A stretch of DNA of 64,000 nt, from NCBI GenBank assembly GCA_040387855.1, contig JAZKCY010000001.1, forward strand, positions 632,793 through 696,792. Direction: 5' to 3'. This DNA is from Patescibacteria group bacterium (GTDB taxonomy: Bacteria > Patescibacteriota > Minisyncoccia > Phycocordibacterales > JAKAEA01). The notes beneath the pieces are model-generated. The model was not told where the DNA came from and made no database searches. It saw only the letters and a list, made by a program, of their open reading frames with translations. Within the stretch, counting starts at the first letter, position 1. Each line of letters begins with the position of its first letter. The translations under genes and the position numbers were made by a program. Positions 1 to 64,000 of this stretch are shown here, piece after piece.

Positions 1-242
1 CGCGTGGATGGTTCTTCTACTTCCACCTGCATTGGTGCTCATACCCGTTTCTCGGACTATTGCTACTCACGACATTTGTGTTCCGGGGCGTGAGTACTAA
101 AGAGGACGAGGATACCGTTTCATGCATCTGGATTTGGTGGAGGAATATCCTTCACAAATTCAGTGCATACACGACGATCCTTTTCGGCCTCGCAAGCATG
201 GTCACCGGCATCGTTCTTCTTATTCAGCTCAAGCAACCCTAG
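1..242 (+). CDS. 3' end of a membrane-protein gene entering from the left window edge (partial)
   Basis: Frame +3 is open from position 3 to a TAG at 240-242 and ends in a hydrophobic segment (…ILFGLASMVTGIVLLIQLKQP). G+C is visibly higher than downstream. A weak hairpin plus T-run follows at ~225-255. Confidence 0.3.
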   Translation, partial: RGWFFYFHLHWCSYPFLGLLLLTTFVFRGVSTKEDEDTVSCIWIWWRNILHKFSAYTTILFGLASMVTGIVLLIQLKQP

Positions 243-274
243 CGGGTGCTTTTTTATTTATATATACTAGAGTC

Positions 275-598
275 ATGATTTTAATTACTCACATTATTGC
301 ATCTTTCATAGGAATTATTGGAGCATATCTTGAAGGTTATGCATTCTTCAAAAAGCTGCCTGGTGTTCAGGCTATTGCTACAAAAATAGCATGGATAGGC
401 CTTATCATTCTTTTTATCACAGGCATCTTTTTGTTTTTGGGTGATATTCCAAAATATACTCAGTCTGTTAAATTTATTTCAAACATGTCTGTATTGGCAA
501 TTCTTATAGTGAATGCACTACAAAGAAAAAGCACACGAACTGTGTGCATTTCTCTAATCTGTTGGACCTGGATTCTATTTATCGCTGTGTTCGTCTAA
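275..598 (+). CDS. small polytopic membrane protein (hypothetical)
   Basis: AT-rich part of track ORF 122-598. Uses the internal ATG at 275 and has 3-4 hydrophobic helices. No clear SD. Overlaps the convergent RR gene by 24 nt. Confidence 0.35.
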   Translation: MILITHIIASFIGIIGAYLEGYAFFKKLPGVQAIATKIAWIGLIILFITGIFLFLGDIPKYTQSVKFISNMSVLAILIVNALQRKSTRTVCISLICWTWILFIAVFV

Positions 599-973
599 TG
601 CTGTTTTAATATCCTCTATTATCTGATCGAGTCGATAATCTGCTTTTGTATAATAATTATTTACTCCTAATTTCAAGTATGAAGTTACTTTATCTTGGGT
701 TGCTGTATTTGAGACTACAAATATTGGTATATTTTTCCACGCATCATTATTCTTAAGTTTTGCAACTAGATCTAAACCATTTTCTTTACCGAGCAAATAG
801 TGATCAAGCCATATTACAGAAATATTTCCTACATCTGTGAGATACGCAATTGCTTGATCTACAGAACGTGCAGACAATACATCAAAACCTGTAATTTCAA
901 GTTTCTTTTTTATTGCTTCAAGAAGCGGACGCTCATCTTCTAGTACCAATACTGTTTTGCGTGATTCTGCCAT
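575..973 (-). CDS. single-domain response regulator (CheY-like receiver)
   Basis: Receiver hallmarks are VLVLEDE (acidic pair), IWLDHYL (phospho-Asp) and VVSN. No output domain. Confidence 0.85.
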   Translation of the reverse strand: MAESRKTVLVLEDERPLLEAIKKKLEITGFDVLSARSVDQAIAYLTDVGNISVIWLDHYLLGKENGLDLVAKLKNNDAWKNIPIFVVSNTATQDKVTSYLKLGVNNYYTKADYRLDQIIEDIKTALDEHSDK

Positions 974-988
974 AAAGATAATTATTAT

Positions 989-2842
989 TTATGATAATCC
1001 TTTGACTCCTTCTTTCTTTTTCATACCCTTAAGTGGTAATGTAACGGTAAATACTGTTCCTTTATTTTCTTCTGACTTAAAACTAATCTTACCACCTGAT
1101 TGTTCAATAATTGATTTTACTATATAAAGCCCAAGTCCGGTACCATCTGTTTCTTTTTCTCGAACATTATCTGCTCTAAATAGTTTGCTAAAAATCTTCG
1201 ATTGCTGCGCTTTTGGAATACCGTATCCTGTATCAGCTACTTTGATTTGCAAAGAAGATTTATTGTTTGAAATATCAATAGTTACATTACCTTTTGGTGG
1301 CGTATATTTGATTGCATTGGTAAGCAAATTTTGTAGCACAATGCGAATTAACTTTGGATCTAGACTTATCAACGGAATATTCTCTGCGTATTTTTTATCC
1401 ACCATTACTTCCCGTGTTTTTATCATCGGGATAAGCTCAGTAAGAAGACTTTCAGATATTTTTGTAATATCTGTTGGTTCTGGCTCGACAGCAAAAGTCC
1501 CCAAATCAATTCGAGAAACATTGAGTAATGCATTTACTAGTTCAACCATACGTTGGTTACCTGTATATATTTCTTGAATATATTGAGTTTGATCTGGAGT
1601 TAATTTTCCAGCATCTCCCGCAAGAAGCATTTCAGCATACCAATTAATAGTAGAAAGTGGAGTTCGTAATTGATGTGATGCAAGAGATACGAATTCTGTT
1701 TTTGCACGATCGATCTCTCTCTCTTTAGTAATATTCTGGGTAGTTCCTAAAAGCTTGATTGGATTATTATGTTCATCAACCACAACTTTACCCTGTGTTC
1801 GGAGCCAACGTATACTGCCATCTTTTAGATTGATTCGATACACATTGTCATAAGGAGCGTGAGTCTTAATAGCTCTTTCTACATTTTCTTGAGTAACCTT
1901 TCGATCATCTGGGTGAATAAGCTCTGTGAATGTCTCTGGTGTTAATTCTCCCCCCTCAGGTGTACGTTCATGAAGCTCAAACATCATATCCGACCAATCA
2001 AATTTATTTGTCTTAATATCCCATGCATAGTTTCCAATCTGACCAATCTTTTGAGCATCAATGAGTTCTGCATCTTTCACTTTGAGAGATTCATTTATTT
2101 TCTCAATATTAGACTTTGACTCTTCTAAATCCTCCAAAAGATTCATCATAGCTTTCTTAGTCTTCTGTAATGTTGTGTTTTGCTTTACTACCTGATCTTG
2201 ATTTGTTGAAGCTATTCGGGTCTCTTCCTGTAAATACGAATTTAATTCTTTCAGTTCTTTAGTTGTATTAATTATTTTTTTCTCAAAATTTTCCTGAATG
2301 CTTTGATAAAAATAGACAAGCAATGTCACTGCAATTAAACTTGCTACCATCTGTCGGATAACGACAAGTGGATATGCAAGTGTAATAATTTCACTTGCTT
2401 GAGCAAATGAAGCTACTATAGTAATACCTATCAACGCACCAACCCACATAATGCCGTCCTTTGTACCTCGTAGAAAAAATGCTAAAACTGGAAACGTGAA
2501 ATACCAATATATTCCAGTACCCTCAATACCTCCTGAATAAAGTAGTGATATCAAGACAAATATCATAATTCCAAGTGCACGATTTGCTGCTTGTCGAGGT
2601 TTTTTCTGGAAATGAAAAATAATTATATTAGATATTAGAAGCGCGGCAAATACTAACTCTAGTGTACCCATACTTTTTAGAGTATCTATGTGGCTTATAC
2701 CAAATATAGAAAGTGAAAGTATTCCTACAATAGAAAAAGCATTTACAAAGATAGTATGACGCTGTTCGGTGTCACTATATGTTTGTGGCAATCCATTGTG
2801 GATATATTTTTTCCACAAAGATATGAAATTGCTATATATCAT
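989..2842 (-). CDS. sensor histidine kinase (polytopic membrane anchor, coiled coil, PAS, HisKA, HATPase_c)
   Basis: N-terminal ~190 aa has 5-6 hydrophobic helices. H-box is SHQLRTPLSTI. N- and G-boxes are LLTNAIKYT and GTGLGL. Confidence 0.9.
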   Translation of the reverse strand: MIYSNFISLWKKYIHNGLPQTYSDTEQRHTIFVNAFSIVGILSLSIFGISHIDTLKSMGTLELVFAALLISNIIIFHFQKKPRQAANRALGIMIFVLISLLYSGGIEGTGIYWYFTFPVLAFFLRGTKDGIMWVGALIGITIVASFAQASEIITLAYPLVVIRQMVASLIAVTLLVYFYQSIQENFEKKIINTTKELKELNSYLQEETRIASTNQDQVVKQNTTLQKTKKAMMNLLEDLEESKSNIEKINESLKVKDAELIDAQKIGQIGNYAWDIKTNKFDWSDMMFELHERTPEGGELTPETFTELIHPDDRKVTQENVERAIKTHAPYDNVYRINLKDGSIRWLRTQGKVVVDEHNNPIKLLGTTQNITKEREIDRAKTEFVSLASHQLRTPLSTINWYAEMLLAGDAGKLTPDQTQYIQEIYTGNQRMVELVNALLNVSRIDLGTFAVEPEPTDITKISESLLTELIPMIKTREVMVDKKYAENIPLISLDPKLIRIVLQNLLTNAIKYTPPKGNVTIDISNNKSSLQIKVADTGYGIPKAQQSKIFSKLFRADNVREKETDGTGLGLYIVKSIIEQSGGKISFKSEENKGTVFTVTLPLKGMKKKEGVKGLS

Positions 2843-4131
2843 TGCTTTTTATATTTTGCTATTTCCTTCTTCAAATCAGACATTTTTAATTCACGATCGA
2901 GCATAACATTATTCAATAGCTCCAACTCGGCACTTCTATCACGCAACGAAACATTAATCTTTTCTATTTCTTCAGTTCGTTCCTTAACTTTCTTTTCTAG
3001 AGTGATATTTGCAGCATTAATCTTTTCAGACATACTATTAAACACAGCTGCTAACGTACCGATTTCATCATTACCACTAAACGGCACTTTTGCAGATGTA
3101 TCCCCAGCACCCATTTTTTCAAGAGTCTTAGTAACAATCTTTATTGGAATAAATACTTTTCGATCAATAATCCACCACAGAATGATTCCAAACACTCCTA
3201 CGATCATCGTAATATAGAATGTAAGTTGTCGTATAAGCGAATCAATATGAATAGCAGCCAAATCTTCTTTGATTGTTGCGATAGGTACAGATACAGAAAC
3301 ACGCCATTTTCTTTCAGGAGAGAGATTAACTGGCGCAGAGGCTCCCACTTTTTCTTGAGAATCAAAACCAAATCTTGTAACTTTTGATACCCCTGCTTTT
3401 ATATCGGCAATTGTTTTTTCAGGAGGTGTACCATTTGTAACCAAGCTTTGAAATTCTGGAGATGCAATATTTTTTCCAATCAGTTCTGTTTTATAGTTGT
3501 ATAAAATAGAACCATCATCATCATACAAGTTTATAAACCCATCTTTTGCAAATTGAACATTTGAAATATATTGCTGCTGAATGTCATTTAGATAAATAGC
3601 CCCTCCTAGAGTTCCTAGGAATTCTTTTTCGTCACCAAAAACAGGTACATGCACAGCAACGAGAAAGCTTGTTGCTCCAGCTGGTTTTATAGATCGGCTC
3701 ATAACAGGCTCATGAAGAGGATCTTCAAAAATTTTGGTTATGTATGGGCCCAATTTAGAAGCTTCTGTTCCAACAAGTGCTCTGTTTACTGAACACTTAA
3801 AAGTGCCGTCTGCATCCACTCGTCCCAAGTTTCCGAGTTTGGTCTTACCTCCTTCCTTAATTTGATCAAGTTTTGCATTACACTCATCGGTATCTCCATA
3901 TTTAATTTCAGGCAACTCAGAAATAAAATAAAGTTGTTTTTCAAGTGAAAGGATTTCAATTTCAATTGTTTGAGCAACCTGACTTGCAATTAGTTTTTCC
4001 TGTTCACCATAATCAGTAATGAGATTATCAGTAATCTTATTCTTTATATAATTTGATGAAATCATTCCACCAATAATAATAAGGACTATGACACTTACTG
4101 TTATTATAATAAAGAGCGTACGTTTGTTCAT
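2839..4131 (-). CDS. membrane sensor module (TM, periplasmic Cache-like domain, TM, HAMP-like linker, coiled coil) without output domain
   Basis: Hydrophobic helix at the N-terminus and again at ~aa 300 (ITMIVGVFGIILWWII). The ~270-aa extracytoplasmic segment between them is Cache-like. C-terminal is a coiled coil. Its start overlaps the downstream HK gene by 4 nt (ATGA). Confidence 0.7.
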   Translation of the reverse strand: MNKRTLFIIITVSVIVLIIIGGMISSNYIKNKITDNLITDYGEQEKLIASQVAQTIEIEILSLEKQLYFISELPEIKYGDTDECNAKLDQIKEGGKTKLGNLGRVDADGTFKCSVNRALVGTEASKLGPYITKIFEDPLHEPVMSRSIKPAGATSFLVAVHVPVFGDEKEFLGTLGGAIYLNDIQQQYISNVQFAKDGFINLYDDDGSILYNYKTELIGKNIASPEFQSLVTNGTPPEKTIADIKAGVSKVTRFGFDSQEKVGASAPVNLSPERKWRVSVSVPIATIKEDLAAIHIDSLIRQLTFYITMIVGVFGIILWWIIDRKVFIPIKIVTKTLEKMGAGDTSAKVPFSGNDEIGTLAAVFNSMSEKINAANITLEKKVKERTEEIEKINVSLRDRSAELELLNNVMLDRELKMSDLKKEIAKYKKQ

Positions 4132-5808: not shown

Positions 5809-6186
5809 TTACACTACATGAAGAAACTCTTTGATTGTTTCTATTATTTTTAATAATGGCGTGTTTGATTTGATAAGATACCCCTGCGCTCCCAATTCTC
5901 TGGCTTTTTTCTCATCTTCCTGCTGACTTAAATTTGAAGTTACAAAAATAGGAGTAGTGTTACCCTTTTCCTTAAGTTCAGCAAGTACTCCAAATCCATC
6001 TTTTTTTGGAATAACAAGATCGAGCAATACAAGATCATATGAATTTGTAAGAATATGCTCTAACGCGGCTTCTCCATCATGGGCAACATCGGCATCAAAT
6101 CCAGAGCTTTTTAATTTTAATTCAAGAGCATGAGCCATTGGCTTCTCATCTTCCACAACAAGTATTTTTTTCTTTAGTTCTGACAT
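5809..6186 (-). CDS. single-domain response regulator (receiver)
   Basis: Begins MSELKKKILVVEDEKP; LVLLDL carries the phospho-Asp. The track ORF extends to 6300, but that extension overlaps a separate zinc-ribbon ORF in another frame, so I use the internal ATG at 6186. Confidence 0.8.
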   Translation of the reverse strand: MSELKKKILVVEDEKPMAHALELKLKSSGFDADVAHDGEAALEHILTNSYDLVLLDLVIPKKDGFGVLAELKEKGNTTPIFVTSNLSQQEDEKKARELGAQGYLIKSNTPLLKIIETIKEFLHVV

Positions 6187-6263
6187 GTATCGAAGTATAC
6201 CATGACGAAAACACAGTCTCGTATGAGACTGTGTATATCGTTGACTTTGATTAAAGAAATATG

Positions 6264-6431
6264 TTACGCGTGAGCTTCTTTGGCCATGCACTTCACACAA
6301 ATCTTTTGTTCAGGTCGTGTCTTAATATATTTGTTTGCACAAGCAGAGCAAACCAAAATTTCAGAACGCGTAGGCTTGTGTACCCACTTTCCATCTCGCT
6401 GAAATGTTTTTGTTGGTTGTAGTTTAAGCAT
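6264..6431 (-). CDS. 55-aa zinc-ribbon protein (CxxC-x14-CxxC)
   Basis: Hand translation gives MLKLQPTKTFQRDGKWVHKPTRSEILVCSACANKYIKTRPEQKICVKCMAKEAHA. It is absent from the ORF track (too short) and sits between the helicase and the RR on the same strand. Confidence 0.5.
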   Translation of the reverse strand: MLKLQPTKTFQRDGKWVHKPTRSEILVCSACANKYIKTRPEQKICVKCMAKEAHA

Positions 6432-21756: not shown

Positions 21757-21786
21757 ACCTAGAGTATAATCTATTTTTAGTTACAC

Positions 21787-22823: not shown

Positions 22824-22877
22824 AAATTTTTATTAATTACTTGGCCCAAGTATACCTAAATTTGATGGAAATGCACG

Positions 22878-23873: not shown

Positions 23874-24014
23874 CTAGTCACTGACGTAAAATTGCCATGT
23901 GAGTTACACAATTTCTACTTACATAATGAATTTTGGATTATGAAAAGCAACTCATTTGACTAATATTATTTCATATTGCATTATTTACAGCGTACTCGTA
24001 CAAAGGAGCCTTAT

Positions 24015-24512
24015 ATGTGGCGATGGATTCGTAGGGTTGTATATGTCTTCCTCTTACCCATAGGAATCGTTTTCCTCGGTTGGGAGACTAAGGACCTCAT
24101 TCGGGGTCTTAGTCGAAATCCACTTTCATGGGTCATCGTACCCTTGGCGTGGATTGGGATTGGTTTATTGGTCTACAACACCGCCAAAGTAAAGCGGAGG
24201 GTTTACTTCAAACGCAGCAAGAGCAGCGATCCCCTCAAGCATGGGTATTTCGTTAACAGGAAAAAGTCTCATCTGATCATTTTCCCGTTTTACTCCGACG
24301 AAACGGCAATCGCAGCGCTTGACCAACTGATAGCACAGGGGTTGGTGCCAGCACAAGAACGACCGTGGCTTCTTGAAGAAATTCAGAGGCTCAAGCTTCC
24401 AGAAAAGACGTGGCCAGCTGAACGTGCAAGGATTCAAGCTATGCAACACGCACTAGCCATACGTTGGCTAATAGTTGTTGGAGTTGTGAATCTGCACCAT
24501 CAAAATAACTAA
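24015..24512 (+). CDS. hypothetical membrane protein, compositionally atypical (G+C elevated)
   Basis: Strong SD AAGGAG 8 nt before the ATG at 24015. Two N-terminal TM helices. G+C is visibly higher than its neighbours. A terminator follows. Confidence 0.5.
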   Translation: MWRWIRRVVYVFLLPIGIVFLGWETKDLIRGLSRNPLSWVIVPLAWIGIGLLVYNTAKVKRRVYFKRSKSSDPLKHGYFVNRKKSHLIIFPFYSDETAIAALDQLIAQGLVPAQERPWLLEEIQRLKLPEKTWPAERARIQAMQHALAIRWLIVVGVVNLHHQNN

Positions 24513-24513
24513 A

Positions 24514-24546: not shown

Positions 24547-24569
24547 TCTTTTTATTCTAAATTTTAAAA

Positions 24570-31899: not shown

Positions 31900-31965
31900 A
31901 CTCTCTGGAAAGATCTGACATCGGAGCGTTTTCGATGATCAGAAAGATACGTAAGGGACGATACC

Positions 31966-32739
31966 ATGACCAAAGCCACGGCTTCAGCGTCGATTCCCAC
32001 CACCACCACTCTCAACCTCCGTGACTTCGAGGTCCCCCACCCGACCAGCCGCGACAACTTCGTCGTCAGCGTCGGCATCGGGACCAAGAGCCTCGACGAC
32101 AACGGCTTCGTGACCGACAACATGCCGTTCATCGAGCAGGTCCAGCGGCGGGCACGTCGCCACACCTCCGAGGGAGTGGCGCACGCTATCGGAGACATGA
32201 CCATCAGCTACCTCGACCGCCGCATCCGTCAGGTCGTGATCGAGGTCAAGAACACTGCCAGCCGCTTCACCCTGAAGCAGCCGAAAGTGCTCGAGCTCGA
32301 CCCACAGCCCAGCCTGCCGCAAGGGTTCGACACGTTCCGGATCGATGGCCTCTCTGTGGAGGCAGAGCTGAGCGACAACCACGTGTGCGGTGGGTACGAC
32401 GGCCAGTTCCGCTGCGACCTGAGGTATACTGCCGCCGACGGGAAGAACCGCTCCACCGCGATCACCGACGTGATCCGACGCGCCTTCCAGAGCAAGACCT
32501 ACACGGCGAGCTGCGAGCAGCTCACCCAGGGCATCGTCTACCAGGCATGCCAGGTCTTGGGCAGCCAGGGGCTCCACGTCATCGGTCGGGTCTACAACCT
32601 GACCGGCTACGCCGAGACCCACTGGAACTCCAGGCTCGTGGTACCGGAGATGCCGCGAGAGTCAACCTGTGGCGAGGTGCGCGAGTCCAAGCCGTCCAGG
32701 TCCTCGAGCTCCAGCGAACGCAGCATGAGCTGGTGCTGA
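31966..32739 (+). CDS. hypothetical protein encoded in a high-GC island (foreign composition)
   Basis: I counted 40/60 G+C at 32041-32100, against 16/60 at 601-660. SD TAAGGGA before the ATG; a host-like terminator follows. The protein is not Lys/Ile/Asn-biased like the neighbours. No motif recognised. Confidence 0.6.
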   Translation: MTKATASASIPTTTTLNLRDFEVPHPTSRDNFVVSVGIGTKSLDDNGFVTDNMPFIEQVQRRARRHTSEGVAHAIGDMTISYLDRRIRQVVIEVKNTASRFTLKQPKVLELDPQPSLPQGFDTFRIDGLSVEAELSDNHVCGGYDGQFRCDLRYTAADGKNRSTAITDVIRRAFQSKTYTASCEQLTQGIVYQACQVLGSQGLHVIGRVYNLTGYAETHWNSRLVVPEMPRESTCGEVRESKPSRSSSSSERSMSWC

Positions 32740-32777
32740 TCAGGCTCTAACGTGGACTCTTCGTTCTTCAACCCAGT

Positions 32778-32808
32778 GCGTAAGCTCCCATAGCTTATGC
32801 ATTTTTTA
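32778..32808. terminator. bidirectional intrinsic terminator
   Basis: GCGTAAGCT-cccat-AGCTTATGC 9-bp stem followed by ATTTTTTATTT. Lies between the convergent genes. Confidence 0.65.
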
Positions 32809-32809
32809 T

Positions 32810-33145
32810 TTAAAATAATTTACCACCTACTAACGCAGTATTTTTATCTGGCACACTTAATGTGACCTTCCCATTTACATCAGGAGTTCCTAGAGTAAGC
32901 ACTTCAGATTCAAATGGACCAATCTTACGTGGTGGAAAATTAACTACTCCCAACACAAGTTTCCCTATTAGCTCTTCTTTTGAATAAGTACTTACAATCT
33001 GGACAGAAGAATTTTTGATTCCTATCTCAGAGCCAAAATCTATTTTTAATTTATATGCAGGCTTCTTTGCTTCTGGGAAATCATTAACTTCTAAGATCTT
33101 TCCCACACGAATATCTAGTTTCAAAAAATCATCAATTGTTGCCAT
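32810..33145 (-). CDS. tRNA-binding domain protein (CsaA/Trbp111-like, OB fold)
   Basis: MATIDDFLKLDIRVGKILEV…KPAYKLKIDFG is typical of CsaA/EMAP-II-like tRNA-binding domains. Start moved to the internal ATG to avoid overlapping the upstream stop. Confidence 0.8.
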   Translation of the reverse strand: MATIDDFLKLDIRVGKILEVNDFPEAKKPAYKLKIDFGSEIGIKNSSVQIVSTYSKEELIGKLVLGVVNFPPRKIGPFESEVLTLGTPDVNGKVTLSVPDKNTALVGGKLF

Positions 33146-34156: not shown

Positions 34157-34229
34157 GGAAGTAGTATAGCAAAATAATTCAGGTATAAAAAAAGCACAGA
34201 ATTACCCGTGCCAACAACCAACAAGAACA

Positions 34230-34925
34230 CTACAGCACGATCACCACGATGGGCACCGTCTTCTGCCACCCGATGACCAGCTTCCACCCCTTGCGGAAGC
34301 ACACCTTCGACCACGGCCCGGCCGCTCGGAGCAAGCCGTTGACAGTCGGGAACTCGTGAGCGATCGACTGCATCAGCAGCTCGTGGAGGAAAGGCTCCTC
34401 CTCGACCAGCTGGTGCATCAGATCCATCTTGCGGGATCCCAGGTGACCACGGCTGTCCAACTGCTCGTTGAGGGTGTTGAGCCGGTTGCACACCCCTCGA
34501 TAGACGCGGTAGAGCCGGCGGAGGTTCGGCGACATGACGCCGACTTCCACTTCCATGCCCATCATCTCGCGCTTAGGCCCGATGTTGATGTCGGCACCGT
34601 GCATGCGCTCGGCGACATTCTGGACCTTGTGGATCTGCGAGAGGGTGAGTTTGATGCACGTCTCCAGCGTCGCGATCTGCTCGCTGACGACCAGCGCGGT
34701 GTCGACGGATACCTGCTCGAATGGATAGCCGACGAAGTAGTTGTCGTTGGGGATGATCGTAAGGTCGACCATCCGAAACAACAACAAGGTCCGCTGTTGC
34801 CACGTGAGATTCTCCCGAAGACGCAGCAGAAGCTGATCCATCGCCTGGGTCATCACCCGCTTCCTCGGCATGAACCAGTGGGGCCTCCGTCGAGATCGGG
34901 TCTGTCTTCGCGTTTGAGTCTGCAT
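34230..34925 (-). CDS. hypothetical protein with Arg-rich N-terminus, encoded in a high-GC island
   Basis: I counted 36/60 G+C at 34561-34620. GGAGG SD 8 nt before the ATG at 34925 (MQTQTRRQTRSRRRP…). The track ORF extends to 34961 with no SD. The antisense ORF 34356-34973 has a GC-shadow composition. Confidence 0.5.
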   Translation of the reverse strand: MQTQTRRQTRSRRRPHWFMPRKRVMTQAMDQLLLRLRENLTWQQRTLLLFRMVDLTIIPNDNYFVGYPFEQVSVDTALVVSEQIATLETCIKLTLSQIHKVQNVAERMHGADINIGPKREMMGMEVEVGVMSPNLRRLYRVYRGVCNRLNTLNEQLDSRGHLGSRKMDLMHQLVEEEPFLHELLMQSIAHEFPTVNGLLRAAGPWSKVCFRKGWKLVIGWQKTVPIVVIVL

Positions 34926-35056
34926 TGCGATTCCTCCGGTTGCAGGGTTAGATTGGAACATGAGCTACGTTAGCTCAGCGGTTGAGTACGATACCATATA
35001 TATCCAACATGTCAACATGGATATATTATTGTGTCAAATTGCGATAAAATACCAAC

Positions 35057-44764: not shown

Positions 44765-44808
44765 ATATAAATCATAGCATAAAAAAAGAGCATCACGAGG
44801 ATGCTCTG

Positions 44809-46602
44809 TTACCCTACCACTTCCGTGGGTTGGGTGTTGTACTGCTGCCACAACACTAAGAATTCAGGACACGTACGGATGAGCTGTGCCAACGTGCCGG
44901 TAGCGACCAATTGCCCCTCATGAAAGAAGTGAATCACATCAAACATGTGGAGTAGGTGCAGCCGATGAATTGACGAGATCACCGTCTTATCCAAGAACGC
45001 GTTGAAGATGTTGGTGTACACCTTCTTCTCTGTAGCCGTATCCAAGCTCGATGTGGGTTCATCGAGTAGCACGACCTCCTTGTCGTGACAGGCCAGGAGC
45101 CCGCGTGCAAGCGCCAGGCGCTGCTTTTGGCCACCTGAGAGATTGACTCCGCGCTCCTTGAGGGACGAATCTAGTCCTTTCGGCAACAAAGCGGCAACAT
45201 CGGTGAAGCACGCCATGTCGGTGTAACGACGGACCAAGTCCGAATCGTACTCCGCACCGAGGGTGATGTTTTCAATCACCGTCGTCCCAAAGATGTCGGG
45301 ATCCTGCGGCAAAAGTCCAATTGCTCGGCAAATGCCATCAAACCCGTCTTCGATTTCGTGATCATCCACAAAGAGTTTCAAGCTCTGCGGACGATGGAGA
45401 CCTCGTACGACTTTGAGCAATGTCGACTTGCCGCTTCCACTTGCTCCCACAAGTGCAACGCGCGACCCACGTGTGATGTCGAACGCTACATTTGCCAAGT
45501 GTAGTCCCGTACCATTATCTGCGTACGAGAAGTTGAGATCCCTCACTTCCATGCGTTGCCAATCCTTTCGCAACACATGGTTAGCAAGGTTATCTTCTTT
45601 GAAGTCGTCAGCCACTTCCTCGGCATTCGCGATGCGTGATGTTCCCACCACGACATCTTTGTACATGCCGGTGAAGCGAAAGAAAACTTCGCTCATTTCA
45701 TCCAAGTACTTGATGAGGATGTAGACCGTGCCCACGAGCACTGCCTTCGGTGTTTCCATATGCTGCCAAACGTACAGCCCCAAGACAAGCATTGTCATGG
45801 CGGCGGTACAGAAGGTAGTAAGGAACCACTTTATCTCGTTAAGCGTTGTGTTCCGCTTAAAGAGATCATACGGCTTGTCGACCCTGTGACAGATCGCCTC
45901 GAACACCAGTCGCTCAACGCGCAGAATGATCACGGTTGCAATGTTTGAGATTGTGTCAAAAACATTCTCCGAAATCTCGTTCTCTGCTTTGTTGAGTTTC
46001 CGATATTGAGGGATCATCACTCGATCGAACTTGATCGTGAAGAATATGGACAGACACATCATTCCGACGACGATTGGAATCGACATCGGAAAAAAGTATC
46101 CGAGCATAATGAAACTCCCCACGAGCTGTATGAAGGCATAGACGATCTGGAACGACATCGACGAAAACTGATAGAGTGCCGAAGCACCTTTTTCAATCTT
46201 GTCGATGGTGTCGCCAGAGTGATGCTCCACATGCCATTCCAATGGCAGGGTCATCGTGCCTTTGAGCAAGTACTTCCGGTAGTTCGCACGGGACTTAAAC
46301 GCATTCAGGGTTTCCCAAACGCGCGCAGGACCGTGAAAAGCCCAGAAGACCATCTTGGTCACAAACATCCACACCAACAACTTGATGAGTGTGGGCATGC
46401 TGTCGACGGTGATTCCCTCAGCCTGGATCTCATTCATGATCTTCGCCCCCAACAGAGGCAAGAAAAAGAGCATGATCGAGATCGCAATGATGAAGAAGCC
46501 CCAGTACAGGGCCACACTCTTGCGGTTGCCCGCTGAGTAGTGCCACGTCTTCCAGAACAGGTACACGAACGGATTTCCGTTCCTGTGAGGCTTCTTGAAC
46601 AT
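44809..46602 (-). CDS. fused TMD-NBD ABC exporter, high-GC (foreign composition)
   Basis: Six N-terminal TM helices. Walker A GASGSGKST, signature LSGGQKQRLALARGL, Walker B VVLLDEPTSSLD. I counted 40/60 G+C at 45061-45120. AAAGGA SD upstream of the ATG. Confidence 0.85.
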   Translation of the reverse strand: MFKKPHRNGNPFVYLFWKTWHYSAGNRKSVALYWGFFIIAISIMLFFLPLLGAKIMNEIQAEGITVDSMPTLIKLLVWMFVTKMVFWAFHGPARVWETLNAFKSRANYRKYLLKGTMTLPLEWHVEHHSGDTIDKIEKGASALYQFSSMSFQIVYAFIQLVGSFIMLGYFFPMSIPIVVGMMCLSIFFTIKFDRVMIPQYRKLNKAENEISENVFDTISNIATVIILRVERLVFEAICHRVDKPYDLFKRNTTLNEIKWFLTTFCTAAMTMLVLGLYVWQHMETPKAVLVGTVYILIKYLDEMSEVFFRFTGMYKDVVVGTSRIANAEEVADDFKEDNLANHVLRKDWQRMEVRDLNFSYADNGTGLHLANVAFDITRGSRVALVGASGSGKSTLLKVVRGLHRPQSLKLFVDDHEIEDGFDGICRAIGLLPQDPDIFGTTVIENITLGAEYDSDLVRRYTDMACFTDVAALLPKGLDSSLKERGVNLSGGQKQRLALARGLLACHDKEVVLLDEPTSSLDTATEKKVYTNIFNAFLDKTVISSIHRLHLLHMFDVIHFFHEGQLVATGTLAQLIRTCPEFLVLWQQYNTQPTEVVG

Positions 46603-46648
46603 TCGAGATTCCTTTCGAGATGCGTGTTATATGGCTATGGTAAAGAAC

Positions 46649-46678
46649 AAAACATCATGCCGGGTGGCATGATGTTTT
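46649..46678. repeat. perfect 13-bp inverted repeat in the 254-bp spacer upstream of the ABC exporter
   Basis: AAAACATCATGCC-gggt-GGCATGATGTTTT. A half-site-like copy TAAAACATCATACC lies ~65 nt downstream. A second 8-bp inverted repeat ATTTGATT…AATCAAAT lies in between. Confidence 0.6.
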
Positions 46679-46856
46679 AAAAATTTGATTTAATGGGAGA
46701 AATCAAATACTTAAAACATCATACCTGTTTAAAAGAAAGAGCGCATAAATACCACCCACGGCCTTTCGTGGATTGGTAGAACTATTTCGATTAAACATGT
46801 TTGATGTCATGATATTGAAACAATACCACACATTAGTACAACATGCAAGCACCAAA

Positions 46857-55152: not shown

Positions 55153-55257
55153 GATTCTTTTAGTATCTCATTAAAAATAAAACACGGCTATACGTATGTG
55201 CACATAGTATGGGAATAAAAATCCCCGGGTCTTGGTAGGCTCGGAGGGTACATATTG

Positions 55258-55986
55258 CTACACAGTCACGAGATCACTCCCCACAAGCTCGGTAGCTTCG
55301 TCGGCTAGCACACTCACGGCGCTTGCCGGTGCGTACCGAATGAGGATGAGCTCGTATGCGCAGCCGGATGTCACGAAGGCATCGTCCACGGGCATCACGG
55401 CTTCGACGTCTTGGTACCTTTCGTGATTGCGAGGAAGCGGCGGCTTCTGGGCTTTGCGAGCCCACTCGTCGATTGTCTCGCGGAACACGGCGATGACGAT
55501 GGTGCCCACAGCAGTCGTCTCACGAAACATCCTTGCAACGTGTGACTGCTGATTGCCCTTGGCGACAAACGGTATGAGCGTGCGTTTTTTGCGCCAGCCC
55601 TTCACCGTCCCGCCGTTTTCTTCGCCAACGTTGAAGATGTAGTTGGCTGTGTCGTCCCAGCAGACCGCTGAGTCAACATCTTCATACACGGGCACGATCT
55701 CGCTGTCGCTCACCGACAAGCCGTCGACGCCCATCGAGCACTGGTGGCTCGCAACAGGATCGATGACGCCGATCACAATCTCAAACTGCTCGCCCTGCTC
55801 GAGAGGGATGTAGCGGAAGTACCTATCCGCATCTCGGGGCCCGATTCCCACCACATCAGCGAGAGCCTTTGGTTGGAAAAATCTCACCTTGCGTACAGGA
55901 TCGCCACGCGCAGTGACAACGTTGATTCCCACGGTGATGAGATCACCGCGAAATACATCGGTGCCATTGGGGTTGCTTGTGTTCAC
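55258..55986 (-). CDS. hypothetical protein encoded in a high-GC island (GTG start)
   Basis: I counted 37/60 G+C at 55441-55500. GTG start is preceded by an AGGAG SD 7 nt upstream. No motif recognised. Confidence 0.5.
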   Translation of the reverse strand: MNTSNPNGTDVFRGDLITVGINVVTARGDPVRKVRFFQPKALADVVGIGPRDADRYFRYIPLEQGEQFEIVIGVIDPVASHQCSMGVDGLSVSDSEIVPVYEDVDSAVCWDDTANYIFNVGEENGGTVKGWRKKRTLIPFVAKGNQQSHVARMFRETTAVGTIVIAVFRETIDEWARKAQKPPLPRNHERYQDVEAVMPVDDAFVTSGCAYELILIRYAPASAVSVLADEATELVGSDLVTV

Positions 55987-56090
55987 GAAGCACTCCTGCC
56001 CGGTAGGGCTGTAAGAGATATAAGAGGCAACAATGGATGAACAAACTCACTACCATAAGTATGACAAATATGGTTGAGCGGCACAATCAT

Positions 56091-58109: not shown

Positions 58110-58112
58110 ATA

Positions 58113-58460
58113 TTAAAGCTTAGTATACTTATCGGATTTTCCTTTTGCTTTTTCTACAGAATACTTTGCTTCATTCTGCTTCATTTTTTCCTCAAACAGT
58201 TTTTTAATATCTAAACCTAGATCATGTGACATTAGAAGCACCCAATACAATACATCAGCAAGCTCTTCACCGACTTTATCTTTATTCTCCACAAGATAAT
58301 TTTCAATATCACCTTCTTTTTTCCATTGGAAATGTTCTAGTACTTCTGTTGCTTCCAGAACAAGTGAGAGCGCCATGTCTTTTGCATTATGAAATTGCTT
58401 CCAGTCTCTTTTGTCTCTAAAGTCAACTATTCTTTTTGTTAAATCCTTAATTTCAGACAT
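58113..58460 (-). CDS. MazG-like all-alpha NTP pyrophosphohydrolase
   Basis: ALSLVLEATEVLEHFQW and ELADVLYWVLLMSHDLGLD match the small MazG/NTP-PPase family. Its stop lies 3 nt before the downstream start. Confidence 0.75.
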   Translation of the reverse strand: MSEIKDLTKRIVDFRDKRDWKQFHNAKDMALSLVLEATEVLEHFQWKKEGDIENYLVENKDKVGEELADVLYWVLLMSHDLGLDIKKLFEEKMKQNEAKYSVEKAKGKSDKYTKL

Positions 58461-58549
58461 ATTTATATAAACTTATCTATAAGCCTATACCTTCTAAAGA
58501 AAAAATCAATTATTTCTAAAGTCTTCGCGAAGTCACAAGGTACCTGTCC

Positions 58550-59233
58550 CTATTTTCCAACTTCAAATACATTTGGCCATTGTCTAAGTTCGCTTGTTGT
58601 TTCACCATAAAAAATATTAAATTTTTCAATAATTTCTCGTACATGAACATGTAGGAATTGCGGCTGATTTTTAAGACTGTTTCTAGGTAATGTTAAAGCA
58701 AATACTTGGGGCTCGCTAAGACTTGTGACATTCATATCACTATTAACAAAAGAATGTTTGTGAGCATTTGCTATATCATTTAATATCTCCAAAAATGAAA
58801 TGTGCCCGGAATATTTTGATTTTATATTCCTCGCTAATTGAGAGGGCTCATTAATTAGTGCTCCTATGCAATCAACCTTCAGGATGTCAGGAAATTCTTC
58901 ATTAGCAATATAAAAGTCTTTTATATAAAGCAGTGATATGAGTTCATCTGTTGTTCTCTTTAGCCAAAAAGTAATTTCATCACTAAGAGAGTGATCGTTT
59001 ATCGGATTATATGATATAAAATCACTTGATGTTAATTCAATCAGATTTCTCTCATGCCATTCATTCAAAACTGTTATTTTTATATTAATAAGATCTAGCC
59101 TCTGTAAAATTTTAGAGACTTTTAATGTTAAATTTCCATAGGGTGTATTTGGAGGAAGATAAAATAAATGACTATTACTTATGGTTGGCTGATCATATGG
59201 ACGTTTGCCGTTATTTATAAAAGGTATTGGCAT
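58550..59233 (-). CDS. hypothetical protein
   Basis: 227 aa, no TM, no motif. Same strand and tightly spaced within the block. Confidence 0.45.
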   Translation of the reverse strand: MPIPFINNGKRPYDQPTISNSHLFYLPPNTPYGNLTLKVSKILQRLDLINIKITVLNEWHERNLIELTSSDFISYNPINDHSLSDEITFWLKRTTDELISLLYIKDFYIANEEFPDILKVDCIGALINEPSQLARNIKSKYSGHISFLEILNDIANAHKHSFVNSDMNVTSLSEPQVFALTLPRNSLKNQPQFLHVHVREIIEKFNIFYGETTSELRQWPNVFEVGK

Positions 59234-59246
59234 TTTAAGTTATATT

Positions 59247-59573
59247 TTATGATATTGGAAAGTCCAACTGTTCCTCAGGTATACCTATTGATTTACCGTA
59301 CTCCACAGCATCACTCCATGTAGACTTATCTGAATACTTTATCCAGAATATTTTGTTCTTATAGATAACGCAGACATCATCTTTTCCCTCTTCCCATGCG
59401 TGAACATACCATGGACCTTCAACAAGACTTTTTGAGATTAGTTCTATCTGTTCTTTTTCAATAAGAACATCATGTAATATCCATGAACCGGCTCTTCGAG
59501 TATTCAGAATGTTTACGGAGTCTAAAAAAGATTTATCAGTCAAACTGCTTTCTATGATTGAGGATTTAAACAT
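59247..59573 (-). CDS. hypothetical protein
   Basis: 108 aa, Trp-rich (GPWYVHAWEEG…IFWIKY…STWSDAVEYG). No family assigned. Confidence 0.45.
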   Translation of the reverse strand: MFKSSIIESSLTDKSFLDSVNILNTRRAGSWILHDVLIEKEQIELISKSLVEGPWYVHAWEEGKDDVCVIYKNKIFWIKYSDKSTWSDAVEYGKSIGIPEEQLDFPIS

Positions 59574-59586
59574 ATTTGGATTTTAT

Positions 59587-60648
59587 CTAACCTAAAAACT
59601 CAACTTCAAAAACATGATGACTATAAGGGTAACCTGAGTCATTTTTTATGAATCCTGTATTTACAACACTAATCTTTGCTTTCATGTAACTCAATGCTTT
59701 TCTTACAATATACAGACCAATACCTGATCCATTTTTACTTATTTCGCTTTTAATACCATTTTTTATATTTCTTCCTTGTCTATTTTCTAGAAATATAATT
59801 TCTTCTTCATCTTTTTCAATTGAGACACTGTCCATTGAAATTGATATTTTCTTTTGTTTCAATGCTAAATCTCCAGAAATATCTATTGTAGTATCATTTA
59901 ACACATACTTACATGCATTATCGAGGATCTGCCAAATCGCAGCATTAAACAAACTATGAACAATATTTATTTTATTTCGATCGCTGTTTTGAAGATTTAT
60001 TCTAATATCAACATTCTTTTTTTTAAGTTCATCAATAAAAGGATTGGTTAAACGATACAATGCTCTTTCGATATTTGTAGGCAATAATGTGCCAGTATTA
60101 TCAGCATATCCTCCAATGATTCTAAGTGTTTCAATTTGTGCATCTAAATCAATTGCTCTATGTGACATCTGGCATACATCATCTGCAGCTGCACTTGTAT
60201 TTTCCTCGATTCTTCGTTTAACTTCTCTAGTAAATTCAGCATAGGGTCTAGCTCTTGCCTTATCAGAAATTAAACGTACAAAATTATTTTTGAATCTATT
60301 TTGAAACTTTATTAAATTATGTGAAAATCTCCTAATAATTGCGTCAAATGATTGTCTTTGACCAACTTCAATTTCCTTAAATTTTGGAATTAAACTTAAA
60401 TAAATACTACAAGCTCTTTGGATTGCTTTACTGCCTTGAAATAAGTCAGCATTCTCATCAACTATTAGCTGAATTGAACCATTTGCATTTTCTCTAAAAG
60501 CATTTTTTAAACCTTTCTGAGAAAAATTTTCTCGATTGTTTTTACTAAAAATATCAGGCAAAAGATCTAACTGACCGTGTCTTGCCACAATATTTCCTTT
60601 AAAATTTCGTAACTCATAAAAAATAATTCCTTCACTATTTTGATTCAT
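59587..60648 (-). CDS. histidine-kinase-like ATPase with novel N-terminal region (atypical HK)
   Basis: The C-terminal has an N-box-like HSLFNAAIWQILDNACKY and a G-box GSGIGLYIVRKAL. A possible HisKA_2-like H-box is SHRAIDLDAQ. The N-terminal 200 aa is unassigned; no TM. Confidence 0.6.
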   Translation of the reverse strand: MNQNSEGIIFYELRNFKGNIVARHGQLDLLPDIFSKNNRENFSQKGLKNAFRENANGSIQLIVDENADLFQGSKAIQRACSIYLSLIPKFKEIEVGQRQSFDAIIRRFSHNLIKFQNRFKNNFVRLISDKARARPYAEFTREVKRRIEENTSAAADDVCQMSHRAIDLDAQIETLRIIGGYADNTGTLLPTNIERALYRLTNPFIDELKKKNVDIRINLQNSDRNKINIVHSLFNAAIWQILDNACKYVLNDTTIDISGDLALKQKKISISMDSVSIEKDEEEIIFLENRQGRNIKNGIKSEISKNGSGIGLYIVRKALSYMKAKISVVNTGFIKNDSGYPYSHHVFEVEFLG

Positions 60649-61141
60649 ATTTTTTTATAGCTGCTACCTCAATTTGGTCAATATAAACATACGGATCTGA
60701 ATGTTTGTCAATCCATGCATTCGCGAATGAATGAAATTCATGTCCTGGAATATAACCAGCATGCCCAGAATAAAATATGAGAAATTTTTCTGGATATCTG
60801 CTCTTTATTTTTTTTAGCAAACCGATTCCCTCTTCTGATGGGGTTAGGATTTTACCCACTCCGATGTAATCCATAAATATGATGTCAGCATTTTTTATAT
60901 CTTCTGAATCAAAATTAGTCACATCTTTTATTTGCTGAACATTCCATCCTGCACCTCTAATAATATTCAATCTCGTAGAAAAATCTTCATCATCAACAAA
61001 TAATACCTTTGTTGAACGTTTGATTTCTTCAATTGATGGTATCTTTTTTTTAGTTAAAACTTTTTTTAACCAATTTCCAGTTTTGTCCATTCCTACACCA
61101 ATAAATACTCCCGCCAGCTTTGTAGCTGCAATTTCCCACAT
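60635..61141 (-). CDS. receiver-like (REC-fold) protein with ~45-aa N-terminal extension
   Basis: KVLFVDDED (acidic pair), IIFMDY (candidate phospho-Asp), LIFYSGHA, WIDK. It overlaps the HK-like gene by 14 nt. Confidence 0.5.
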   Translation of the reverse strand: MWEIAATKLAGVFIGVGMDKTGNWLKKVLTKKKIPSIEEIKRSTKVLFVDDEDFSTRLNIIRGAGWNVQQIKDVTNFDSEDIKNADIIFMDYIGVGKILTPSEEGIGLLKKIKSRYPEKFLIFYSGHAGYIPGHEFHSFANAWIDKHSDPYVYIDQIEVAAIKKYESK

Positions 61142-61171
61142 GGTGATTTATATTATTCTATTCTTACTATG

Positions 61172-61242
61172 CTGCGGGACTAGGACTCGAACCTAGATAC
61201 TCAGGACCAAAACCTGATGTCCTACCATTAGACGATCCCGCA
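61172..61242 (-). tRNA. tRNA-Gln: tRNA-Gln (anticodon UUG)
   Basis: Hand-folded cloverleaf. Acceptor TGCGGGA/TCCCGCA with U1:A72 and G73 discriminator; D-stem GTCT/GGAC; anticodon stem TCAGG/CCTGA with loop TTTTGGT; T-stem CTAGG/CCTAG with loop TTCGAGT. No encoded CCA. Confidence 0.85.
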
Positions 61243-62803: not shown

Positions 62804-62888
62804 TACTCCCTGAGTCTGCTACGTATATATAAGCAGAGATCACATGGTCTCTTCACATCAGTCACGATTATCTTTAACTTATATACGT

Positions 62889-63581
62889 ATGAAAAATTCA
62901 GCTAAAATTGGTTCAGTACTCGCGCTTACCGTTGTTCTTCTTACAGGAAGTTCAGCATATGCACACACAGGAACTACAACTCCAAAAACAGGGACTGCGA
63001 AGTTCTTCTCAAAGTTACATATCAACGGTCTTGGTAAAACAAACATCGTTGGATCGGTAACTGCCGTATCTGCAACTGGATTTACTGTAGCTTCACAAGG
63101 AGGCTCATGGACTATTAAGACTGATTCTAATACTCACTTCACTGTAAAGAATGGAGCAAACCAAGTGAAAGTTGGTGATACCGTGATGGTATATGGAACT
63201 GTTTCAACAACAGAGACTATGACTATCGTTGCTTCAAAAATTGAAAACAAGACACTCAAGACAACGATGAAACTCGAAAAGAAAGCTGCCCACGAAAACA
63301 AAAAAGAAATTAAGCAGAGTCTTAAAGAATTGAAAAAGCATATGTTATCACTATTTAGCTTCGGTACGGTGCAAAGTGTCGGAACTAATTCCCTCACCCT
63401 CAAGTCTCAGAATGGTGCAACATATGATATAAAAACTTCATCAACAACAGAGACATATAAAAAAGATTGGACTGCAACTTCAACCTCAGCAATCAAAGCA
63501 AATCATCAGATTCACGTGTACGGAACAAAGACAGGAACGACAACAATCGATGCGTCTATCATTCACGACTTATCTCTCTAA
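62889..63581 (+). CDS. secreted protein with two DUF5666-like beta-rich repeats
   Basis: Signal peptide MKNSAKIGSVLALTVVLLTGSSAYA. Two ~65-aa repeats (GSVTAVSATGFTVAS…VYGTVS and GTVQSVGTNSLTLKS…VYGTKT). Confidence 0.55.
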   Translation: MKNSAKIGSVLALTVVLLTGSSAYAHTGTTTPKTGTAKFFSKLHINGLGKTNIVGSVTAVSATGFTVASQGGSWTIKTDSNTHFTVKNGANQVKVGDTVMVYGTVSTTETMTIVASKIENKTLKTTMKLEKKAAHENKKEIKQSLKELKKHMLSLFSFGTVQSVGTNSLTLKSQNGATYDIKTSSTTETYKKDWTATSTSAIKANHQIHVYGTKTGTTTIDASIIHDLSL

Positions 63582-63603
63582 GTATCTCTCATACGTAAAA
63601 TAC

Positions 63604-63635
63604 AAAAAGCCCTGAGTTAAATCAGGGCTTTTTGT
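63604..63635. terminator. bidirectional intrinsic terminator
   Basis: AAAAAGCCCTGA-gttaaa-TCAGGGCTTTTT, between convergent genes. Confidence 0.7.
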
Positions 63636-63654
63636 ATGGCTTATATATAAGATG

Positions 63655-64000
63655 TTATGCCGTGCTTAGTGAAATGAGAGCAAGTTCAAATGGCAATTCA
63701 CTTATTGGAGAGAACCGAGCAAGATCCTGAGCTTTCAAAAATTCTAATACTGCTTTTGAGGTAATGCCTGTATCTTTCTTTGCAGCGAGGACTTTCATCC
63801 AACTAAAATCTTCTCCTGAAAATTCATCTTCTATCATTTTGTCCATGTCTGGACTGTACTTGAGCAATAAAATAGATCGGAGTTTGTGGAGCACAAGCTT
63901 TGAGAAAATAGCCATGTCTACATTTTGATCCACTGCAGATCTCAAAGCTTTCAATCCAGATGAAGCATCTTTTGTATCTATAGCTGCTACCACATCATTA
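63655..64000 (-). CDS. 3' portion of a gene continuing beyond the right edge (possibly DNA polymerase III clamp-loader subunit C-terminal domain)
   Basis: Open to the window edge. The helical C-terminal …SSGLKALRSAVDQNVDMAIFSKLVLHKLRSILLLK… resembles delta/tau C-domains only weakly. Confidence 0.3.
   Translation of the reverse strand, partial: NDVVAAIDTKDASSGLKALRSAVDQNVDMAIFSKLVLHKLRSILLLKYSPDMDKMIEDEFSGEDFSWMKVLAAKKDTGITSKAVLEFLKAQDLARFSPISELPFELALISLSTA

Follow-up and report, generated by a model that had tools for sequence, protein, structure and literature searches.

How do single GC-rich genes come to lie scattered through the AT-rich genome of a small bacterium? This question is raised by a 64-kb stretch of DNA (hereafter "the window", i.e., the whole stretch that was analysed) from a Paceibacteria-like, non-Saccharibacteria genome of ca. 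1 Mb and ca. 36% GC. An earlier note had described six GC-rich patches in AT-rich surroundings, and our measurements bear this out. The patches have 48-61% G+C compared to a background of 36.1 +/- 3.5% in the 64-kb window (z=3.3-7.2 relative to 191 background windows of 300 nt with a mean of 36.1%, a standard deviation of 3.5%, and a maximum of 45%), and their GC3 is just as atypical (z=5.4-14.1) for a host with a GC3 of 0.251 +/- 0.045 (maximum 0.40; n=67 genes). The background, given in that note as 27-35%, had to be corrected to 36%. Every one of the six patches comprises a single coding gene, with that of patch F truncated at the window edge:

Patch F, 1-245 (50.2% GC, z=4.1, GC3 0.64), plus strand: 1..242, 3' end of a membrane-protein gene (79 codons, frame 3) that extends past the left edge, stop codon at 240-242.
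Patch E, 24015-24512 (47.6% GC, z=3.3, GC3 0.49), plus strand: unit 24003..24512 with Shine-Dalgarno AAGGAG (24003-24008), then a 165-aa membrane-protein gene (24015-24512).
Patch A, 31901-32810 (61.2% GC, z=7.2, GC3 0.88), plus strand: unit 31901..32810 with 60-nt 5' region, Shine-Dalgarno TAAGGGA (31952-31958), 257-aa gene (31966-32739), and terminator hairpin (32775-32803).
Patch B, 34171-35010 (57.0% GC, z=6.0, GC3 0.83), minus strand: unit 34193..35015 with predicted promoter, Shine-Dalgarno GGAGG (34933-34937), 231-aa gene (34925-34230), and terminator (34212-34193).
Patch C, 44771-46640 (50.6% GC, z=4.2, GC3 0.67), minus strand: 44787..46602, gene for a predicted 597-aa ABC exporter (46602-44809) and terminator (44807-44787).
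Patch C leader, 46603..46800, minus strand: AT-rich, holds Shine-Dalgarno AAAGGA (46610-46615).
Patch D, 55181-56060 (55.8% GC, z=5.7, GC3 0.69), minus strand: unit 55190..56075 with non-coding block (56075-55987), Shine-Dalgarno AGGAG (55993-55997), 242-aa gene with GTG start codon (55986-55258), and then a 3' hairpin region.

Codon usage and oligonucleotide composition are foreign as well. The relative synonymous codon usage (RSCU) of the patches correlates with that of the host at r=-0.72 to 0.00, with patches A (r=-0.66) and B (r=-0.72) being outright anticorrelated, while single host genes reach r=0.74-0.83. Tetranucleotide profiles give r=-0.50 to +0.25 for the patches compared to 0.84 for chunks of the host. 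Composition changes abruptly at the edges of the patches, within tens of bases, and the patches occupy intergenic spacers without disrupting any host gene; together, they make up 8.2% of the window, ca. 10 times the density seen at comparable loci of relatives. One listed open reading frame (122-598) has to be corrected, as it combines the 3' part of foreign gene F with a host gene beginning at 275.

The ribosome-binding sites are of donor type, too. All five complete foreign genes carry a Shine-Dalgarno motif at a spacing of 6-9 nt from the start codon, and a GGAG/GAGG/AGGA core is present in 4/5 of them but in merely 2/67 host genes (Fisher p=7e-5), in line with the earlier claim that each patch has a canonical site of a kind mostly absent from host genes. 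The fifth complete gene, that of patch A, has TAAGGGA instead of the core. Most host genes look leaderless; a literature search on leaderless translation in CPR bacteria returned nothing relevant.

We consider it likely that an AT-rich, ca. 1-Mb Paceibacteria-like Patescibacterium acquired the patches recently and independently of one another, each as a self-contained unit with a single gene. This agrees with the earlier proposal of several independent acquisitions of single genes from higher-GC donors, given the foreign composition and codon usage and the reproducible junctions described below. Atypical GC, GC3, and codon usage are said to mark recent arrivals in the work of Lawrence and Ochman on islets and amelioration, and the gradation of GC3 from 0.88 to 0.49 seen here, as in such compositional islets, could reflect different donors or different ages.

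What do these units encode? No Pfam or NCBIfam family was found for the genes of A, B, D, E, and F, PDB sequence profiles gave no match, and PADLOC revealed no defence match for A, B, D, or E. The product of patch A is probably a T-fold (tunnelling-fold) protein, a class recognized by a beta-beta-alpha-alpha-beta-beta fold and by superposition on DHNA, PTPS, GCH-I, QueF, or urate oxidase. For patch D, the AlphaFold model has a pLDDT of 49.5, and Foldseek found no meaningful match to it. The gene of patch B is called at 203 aa by NCBI and at 231 aa here; its predicted promoter is sigma-70-like (TTGACA-16-TGnTATCGT, 35015-34988), and predicted promoters and terminators flank A, B, and C. Alignments with relatives contain many invariant columns for A (36% identity to P0002), B (30% for P0134/P0135), and D (51% to P0004), which marks these as real genes under constraint. 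A reading of the patches as structured RNA was rejected because they show three-base periodicity and conserved protein families and have no Rfam match at gathering thresholds. The window also holds an AT-rich defence island next to tRNA-Gln, and patch D is situated at its edge.

The product of the patch C gene matches Pfam families PF00664 (ABC_membrane; 56.6 bits, cut-off 28) and then PF00005 (ABC_tran; 84.8 bits, cut-off 25), as expected for an ABC exporter composed of a half-transporter with fused transmembrane and nucleotide-binding domains, while no NCBIfam equivalog threshold was reached. The leader upstream is conserved in the homologous loci L076 and L077 (65% identical) and is a candidate transcription attenuator: it is predicted to fold either into an antiterminator-like hairpin (46725-46666) or into a terminator-like one (46679-46648), which exclude each other and have the segment AAAACATCATGCC in common. 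Four compensatory pairs, which come from just two distinct sequences, are seen in this leader, and it matches no Rfam family. For both C (score 64; null maximum 27) and D (72; null maximum 23), the non-coding DNA upstream can be aligned with its counterpart at homologues from other genomes, and the ca. 90-nt block upstream of the D gene is conserved with locus L003.

Patch C also has an evident affiliation. All its named relatives belong to Zambryskibacteria, Paceibacterota, or Patescibacteria (55-66% identity), and these comparisons clearly point to a Patescibacterial origin, though the donor itself is unsampled since the best relative is just 66% identical. The other genes are near-orphans: among 1.8-5.8 billion proteins, A has one relative, B has two, and D has two to three, and a metagenome scan for relatives of B yielded one locus. 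These few relatives lie in AT-rich contigs that are probably CPR, judging by gene content alone, and they are usually GC-elevated within their own contigs as well. B, C, and D have GC-elevated homologues elsewhere, while the distant D relative P0005 shows no such elevation in its own genome. The relatives of B are found on a contig of 41-43% GC, CPR-like judging by its gene content, and in a metagenome-assembled genome labelled 'bacterium'; the sole relative of A is on a contig of 54% GC on which every gene has a GC3 of 0.56-0.74. Taxonomic assignment of the foreign proteins, the check proposed earlier, succeeded for C; the one to three relatives of A, B, and D include no named high-GC taxon, and none of A, B, D, E, and F could be traced to a donor. 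When the flanking P-type ATPase was used to scan species-representative genomes for related loci, the best of 65 was 68% identical and none had the neighbouring genes; an empty-site allele was not recovered, so that insertion is inferred from composition rather than observed.

Composition nevertheless constrains the donors. According to a rough regression (GC3 = 1.89*GC - 0.43, our own approximation), GC-richer Patescibacteria of ca. 55-59% GC would suffice as donors of C and, by composition, of D and F. Patch E implies a donor of ca. 49% GC, and A and B alone imply one of ca. 65-70%, so that two or three donor compositions are needed at a minimum. Sampled Patescibacteria with a genome GC of 0.54-0.57 have a median GC3 of 0.60-0.68 (0.68 being the maximum among sampled loci).

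An alternative suggested in the earlier note is that an episymbiont took genes from its high-GC physical host, e.g., an actinobacterium; this would apply to A and B at least. High-GC foreign genes would be the expected signature of host-to-episymbiont transfer, and the GC3 of A and B (0.83-0.88) exceeds the median of every sampled Patescibacteria locus. The two patches also resemble each other (r=0.71 for tetranucleotides, r=0.76 for RSCU) and are spaced by 1.4 kb, consistent with one donor of ca. 65-70% GC, and the 54% GC contig of A's relative would fit as well. However, no actinobacterial or other named high-GC taxon appears in the annotation of the relatives of A, B, and D, those of B are in the 41-43% GC CPR-like contig and the genome labelled 'bacterium', and C is clearly Patescibacterial. 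The organism itself is Paceibacteria-like, and we know of no established actinobacterial hosts of Paceibacteria. Composition by itself names no taxon, and the patches alone do not reveal the organism's host. We thus regard a physical host as the source of A and B as unlikely, and the specific suggestion of an actinobacterial donor finds no backing in these data.

The patches could also derive from mobile elements, as remnants or cargo (e.g., prophage morons, integron-like cassettes, or a decayed island). Phage morons and integron cassettes are likewise single-gene units between resident genes that often bring along a promoter and a terminator, and the position of patch D beside the defence island and tRNA-Gln as well as the presence of homologous cassettes with conserved leaders in other genomes would fit such an origin. 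Yet Pfam gave no match to an integrase, a transposase, a recombinase, or a phage structural protein in the 64-kb window, be it among the open reading frames that were scanned or in the precomputed annotation of the Logan gene tables. Target-site duplications and terminal inverted repeats are absent from all patch borders, just as the earlier note had seen no integrase, transposase, or direct repeat next to the patches, and attC-like repeats are missing, too. Searches with A, B, and D by tblastn in INPHARED and PLSDB and profile-guided scans of IMG/VR gave no match, and the sole scoring PHROGs family is a generic ABC transporter, for C. Unlike morons or integron cassettes, the patches have no phage context, integrase, attC, or array but are scattered. 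Unlike classical genomic islands with several genes, each islet holds one gene, and A, B, C, and E lack a tRNA-adjacent integration site, integrase, and flanking repeats. A mobile-element origin therefore appears quite improbable.

Another concern, also raised in the earlier note, is that fragments of GC-rich organisms were misjoined to a Patescibacteria contig, given that the source is a metagenome-assembled genome. All patches lie on a single contig of 981,549 bp, which leaves binning out of the question. To assess assembly, we used Logan contigs of run SRR26324620, which were built by another assembler and are independent in method but not in data, since the reads are probably the same set as those of the source assembly. 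These contigs reproduce 10/10 junctions of the complete patches A-E at 100% identity (both of E in L075, those of A in L075 and L073, both of B in L073, those of C in L074 and L079, and both of D in L002). Within A, they are interrupted between 32510 and 32736, and within C between 45090 and 45744; low coverage or variation at these points might be the reason. Chimerism would moreover require two joins per patch, placed exactly in an intergenic spacer with intact neighbours and around a complete gene with ribosome-binding site and terminator, and homologues of B, C, and D occur as GC-elevated single genes in AT-rich contigs of other samples. The junctions are thus real, and chimerism is very unlikely. 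Native genes of unusual composition shaped by selection or biased gene conversion are scarcely credible, even if the GC-elevated homologues of B, C, and D could indicate a family property, because amino-acid content cannot explain a GC3 of 0.67-0.88 in a genome with 0.25, the boundaries are sharp, the Shine-Dalgarno sites are alien to the leaderless host architecture, the families are very sparse, and D relative P0005 is not GC-elevated.

Under the preferred reading of recent single-gene acquisitions, the patches would have arrived as expression units of ca. 0.5-2 kb composed of leader or promoter, donor Shine-Dalgarno, coding sequence, and terminator. Entry may have occurred by natural transformation with DNA uptake via type IV pilus and competence machinery, followed by integration through illegitimate recombination, with selection then maintaining the genes. 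The recipient would have gained a presumably inducible ABC exporter (C), a putative T-fold protein (A), and membrane proteins (E and F), with B and D being of no assigned function. Genes for part of the type IV pilus and competence machinery lie in the window, and this machinery is found widely across the phylum.

The literature already documents the transfer of single genes in Patescibacteria, for the most part within the phylum, and the window is a clear and striking further example. In groundwater Patescibacteria, 83% of individually transferred genes, ABC transporters included, come from other Patescibacteria, as much as 13% of the genome length has been ascribed to horizontal transfer, and competence and pili have been proposed as the route (PMC12455944). 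The 8.2% of foreign DNA and the ABC exporter of Patescibacterial origin match this picture. However, that study by its own account did not capture very recent events (mean donor-recipient divergence of 24%; PMC12455944), while the patches have not yet drifted hostward in composition (GC3 up to 0.88 vs. 0.25) and can be resolved into leader, Shine-Dalgarno, coding sequence, and terminator. The window shares an ultra-small CPR recipient with the host-to-episymbiont transfer from Actinobacteria hosts to Saccharibacteria (e.g., PMC7427843), but differs in its Paceibacteria-like organism and in that no actinobacterial homologue turned up for any patch.

Innovation in the tiny Patescibacteria genomes is considered to stem mainly from horizontal transfer. 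Very recent transfers are rarely caught because metagenome assemblies break there; the window catches five or six such events at base resolution and with donor composition intact. The patches thereby show that what moves is a single gene together with the regulatory DNA that belongs to it, and that mobility genes are absent. Foreign genes led by Shine-Dalgarno sites amid host genes that nearly all appear leaderless raise the testable question of how they are translated. A more far-reaching idea, which we regard as doubtful, is that A and B were taken from the physical host of this Paceibacterium and that self-contained cassettes may be the unit of exchange among CPR bacteria via transformation. 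If true, such cassettes would be exchanged even into recipients with leaderless, Shine-Dalgarno-free genes, and unameliorated single-gene islets could act as a genomic pointer to the hosts of uncultured Paceibacteria.

The 64,000 nucleotides (37.5% G+C overall) carry six GC-rich patches; profiling GC with a sliding window and scanning it against a threshold recovered all of them at the earlier note's coordinates. Compared with a background of 191 windows of 300 nt (mean G+C 36.1%, sd 3.5%, maximum 45%), the patches and the genes in them are as follows.

Patches of elevated G+C and their genes
31901-32810, patch A, G+C 61.2%, z 7.2; gene 31966-32739, plus strand, GC3 0.88
34171-35010, patch B, G+C 57.0%, z 6.0; gene 34925-34230, minus strand, GC3 0.83
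55181-56060, patch D, G+C 55.8%, z 5.7; gene 55986-55258, minus strand, GC3 0.69
44771-46640, patch C, G+C 50.6%, z 4.2; gene 46602-44809, minus strand, GC3 0.67
1-245, patch F, G+C 50.2%, z 4.1; 3' end of a gene cut by the window edge, GC3 0.64
24015-24512, patch E, G+C 47.6%, z 3.3; gene on the plus strand, GC3 0.49

Each patch holds one coding gene with strongly enriched third-position GC (GC3), while the 67 host genes have a GC3 of 0.251 +/- 0.045 with a maximum of 0.40, and foreign DNA makes up 8.2% of the bases. In codon usage, A and B correlate negatively with the host (r=-0.66 and r=-0.72, respectively; host genes of comparable length reach 0.74-0.83), and the two resemble each other in tetranucleotides (r=0.71) and relative synonymous codon usage (RSCU, r=0.76). 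Rare homologues align to A, B, and D at 25-52% identity with numerous invariant columns, so these ORFs are real genes. Patch C encodes an ABC exporter with fused transmembrane and ATPase parts, E and F encode small membrane proteins, the B protein is helical with an arginine-rich N-terminus, and the D protein is beta-rich. Strong GC3 outliers number four in this 64-kb window and about four in ca. 700 kb of the relatives' loci, i.e., they are some ten-fold denser here by a crude comparison in which the greedy ORF caller overlooked at least one known outlier pair.

Binning or assembly chimerism had been raised as an alternative source of this mosaic. We therefore turned to contigs built by a different assembler (Logan, run SRR26324620), located by exact-protein look-ups and 100% identical to the window.

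Logan contigs matching the window
21409-32510, contig L075
32736-40992, contig L073
40975-45090, contig L074
45744-51228, contig L079
51199-61199, contig L002

Between them, the five contigs span the two junctions of each complete patch (A to E), though they probably derive from the same reads and are independent in method only. The Logan assembly breaks inside A (32510-32736) and inside C (45090-45744), not at patch borders, and neither A nor C has a full-length protein in its gene index; low coverage or variable sequence inside the two genes may account for this. Moreover, every patch lies exactly in an intergenic spacer, with intact neighbors on both sides and, within it, a single complete gene that has a terminator of its own; chimerism would require ten such coincidences. 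The alternative is thus not borne out, and the patches are real acquisitions.

The acquired genes also stand apart in how translation starts. Ahead of 4 of the 5 complete foreign genes stands a GGAG/GAGG/AGGA core, 6-9 nt from the start codon, with TAAGGGA in its place in the fifth, A, while it precedes only 2 of the 67 host genes (Fisher p=7e-5). This confirms the earlier observation that Shine-Dalgarno sites mark the patches and are mostly missing from host genes, and indicates that the foreign genes retain donor translation signals. Instead, 37 of the 67 host genes (e.g., 33608-34156, 8413-9522, 10820-12481, and 47237-47677) show a TANNNT (-10-like) hexamer ending 4-10 nt (mode 6) ahead of the start codon, a leaderless-transcript architecture which suggests that the mRNAs of this Patescibacterium are largely leaderless. 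At the left edge, the ORF at 122-598 is a read-through artefact: it joins the tail of F, the foreign membrane-protein gene, to a host gene that likewise codes for a membrane protein and truly starts at the ATG at 275, 6 nt past a TATACT box.

Non-coding DNA has traveled with at least some of these genes. The roughly 90 nt that precede D align with the DNA before its 51%-identical homologue, and upstream of C an AT-rich leader of about 170 nt is conserved with a 65%-identical homologue found on two contigs (L076 and L077).

Conserved upstream elements of patches D and C
55987-56075, minus strand, conserved block upstream of D (contig L003, 218-306)
46603-46800, minus strand, leader of C (L076, 3700-3898; L077, 537-735)
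46725-46666, minus strand, antiterminator-like long stem in the C leader
46679-46648, minus strand, terminator-like stem in the C leader, followed by a T-run

The core of the D block, ATATTTG[T/G]CATACTTATGGTAGT(C)GAGTTTGTT, differs over its 40 nt by one substitution and one single-base indel and so has diverged less than the coding sequence, and a search for structure in the block gave nothing convincing. In the C leader, two mutually exclusive hairpins are predicted that share the segment AAAACATCATGCC, and their pairs are maintained by compensatory base changes between the two genomes compared. The leader matches no Rfam family; it is a candidate attenuator, and the exporter is probably under attenuation control. 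Patch B has a predicted near-consensus promoter with an extended -10 element as well as a terminator, and A and C end in predicted terminator hairpins. Conserved leaders, promoter, and terminators together show that the unit of transfer is a self-contained expression cassette. Its extent is underestimated by GC content alone because the regulatory DNA of the cassettes is AT-rich.

An actinobacterial host as donor, as the earlier note had proposed, is unsupported, since none of the relatives found for A, B, C, or D is annotated as actinobacterial, and for C it is contradicted. The best 120 of roughly 4,000 relatives of C are 55-66% identical, and all those with an organism name are Patescibacteria (Zambryskibacteria, Paceibacterota, or "Patescibacteria group"). 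Retrieved Patescibacteria loci reach a genome GC of 57% and a median GC3 of 0.68, and the GC3 of C, D, and F (0.64-0.69) matches their upper range. A and B exceed the median of every such locus, and from a rough regression we infer a donor of about 65-70% GC. Relatives of both are scarce: A has one among 5.8 billion proteins (36% identical, on a 3.3-kb contig where every gene has a GC3 of 0.56-0.74) and B has two among 1.84 billion cluster representatives. One of the latter comes from a MAG labelled only "bacterium", and the other, on a contig of 42.7% GC, adjoins genes that we read from ORF translations as HD-domain, NUDIX-like, and DUF1761-like. For D, the relatives are one of 51% identity on a 1.1-kb contig and others of 25% on contigs of 45% GC that carry LTD, PKD, and RmuC genes. 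The differing GC3 classes argue for separate events rather than one, in line with the earlier proposal of several independent single-gene acquisitions.

In other AT-rich contigs, homologues of B, C, and D likewise have a higher GC3 than their neighbors (0.54 vs. about 0.35, 0.57 vs. about 0.28, and 0.53 vs. 0.43), and one locus, L076, has four interleaved GC3-rich genes.

Single or interleaved GC3-rich genes in contigs with B, C, or D homologues
3260-7259 of contig L076
2955-4402 of contig L078
307-1026 of contig L003
7694-8905 of contig L004

The mosaic pattern thus recurs in other genomes, several of which the B, C, and D families seem to visit as circulating foreign DNA; these genomes are probably of CPR bacteria, as judged from gene content only.

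The resident genome has the gene content of a typical small-genome CPR bacterium plus numerous two-component sensors, and its flanking P-type ATPase has its best matches (61-68%) in MAGs of Paceibacterota, Nomurabacteria, and other Patescibacteria. Just upstream of a related P-type ATPase, on contig L012, a GC-rich (59%) stretch without long ORF (8951-9500) may be a non-coding RNA. For a genome of ca. 1 Mb, PAS/Cache/HAMP sensor histidine kinases and response regulators are unusually dense (989-2842, 2839-4131, 15683-17974, 26128-27972, 40303-41844, 575-973, 5809-6300, and 39946-40302). Separately, an AT-rich island (28-33% GC; 56547-61141) with patch D at its edge adjoins tRNA-Gln (61171-61242) and carries candidate defense genes.

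Candidate defense genes of the AT-rich island
56547-58109, Nhi/AbiO-like SLFN-group-3 (DUF2075) helicase
58113-58460, MazG-like protein
59587-60648, PDC-M43B
60635-61141, PDC-M43A

As the earlier note had it, no integrase, transposase, or direct repeat flanks the patches: in the scanned window ORFs and the precomputed Pfam annotation of the Logan tables, integrases, transposases, recombinases, and phage structural proteins are all absent, comparison of the patch borders revealed neither direct nor inverted repeats, and no relative of A, B, or D turned up in INPHARED, IMG/VR, or PLSDB. The window thus presents self-contained cassettes of foreign and several different donor compositions, set cleanly between genes and free of mobile-element machinery. 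Natural transformation could have brought in the donor DNA, illegitimate recombination would then have integrated it, and selection would have retained the acquired genes. The window has genes for a type IV pilus ATPase and for several pilins, and the route that PMC12455944 proposes for the phylum is competence.

The earlier interpretation was therefore partly right, in that the acquisitions are real, multiple, and independent. They are a further example of an already known kind of transfer, not a new kind. The window fits the picture drawn by a survey of horizontal gene transfer in Patescibacteria, in which very recent events went undetected (PMC12455944), and adds unusually fresh examples to it. 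The value of the case lies in the recency of the events, in the anatomy of the cassettes, and in their contrast with a leaderless host without Shine-Dalgarno sites.
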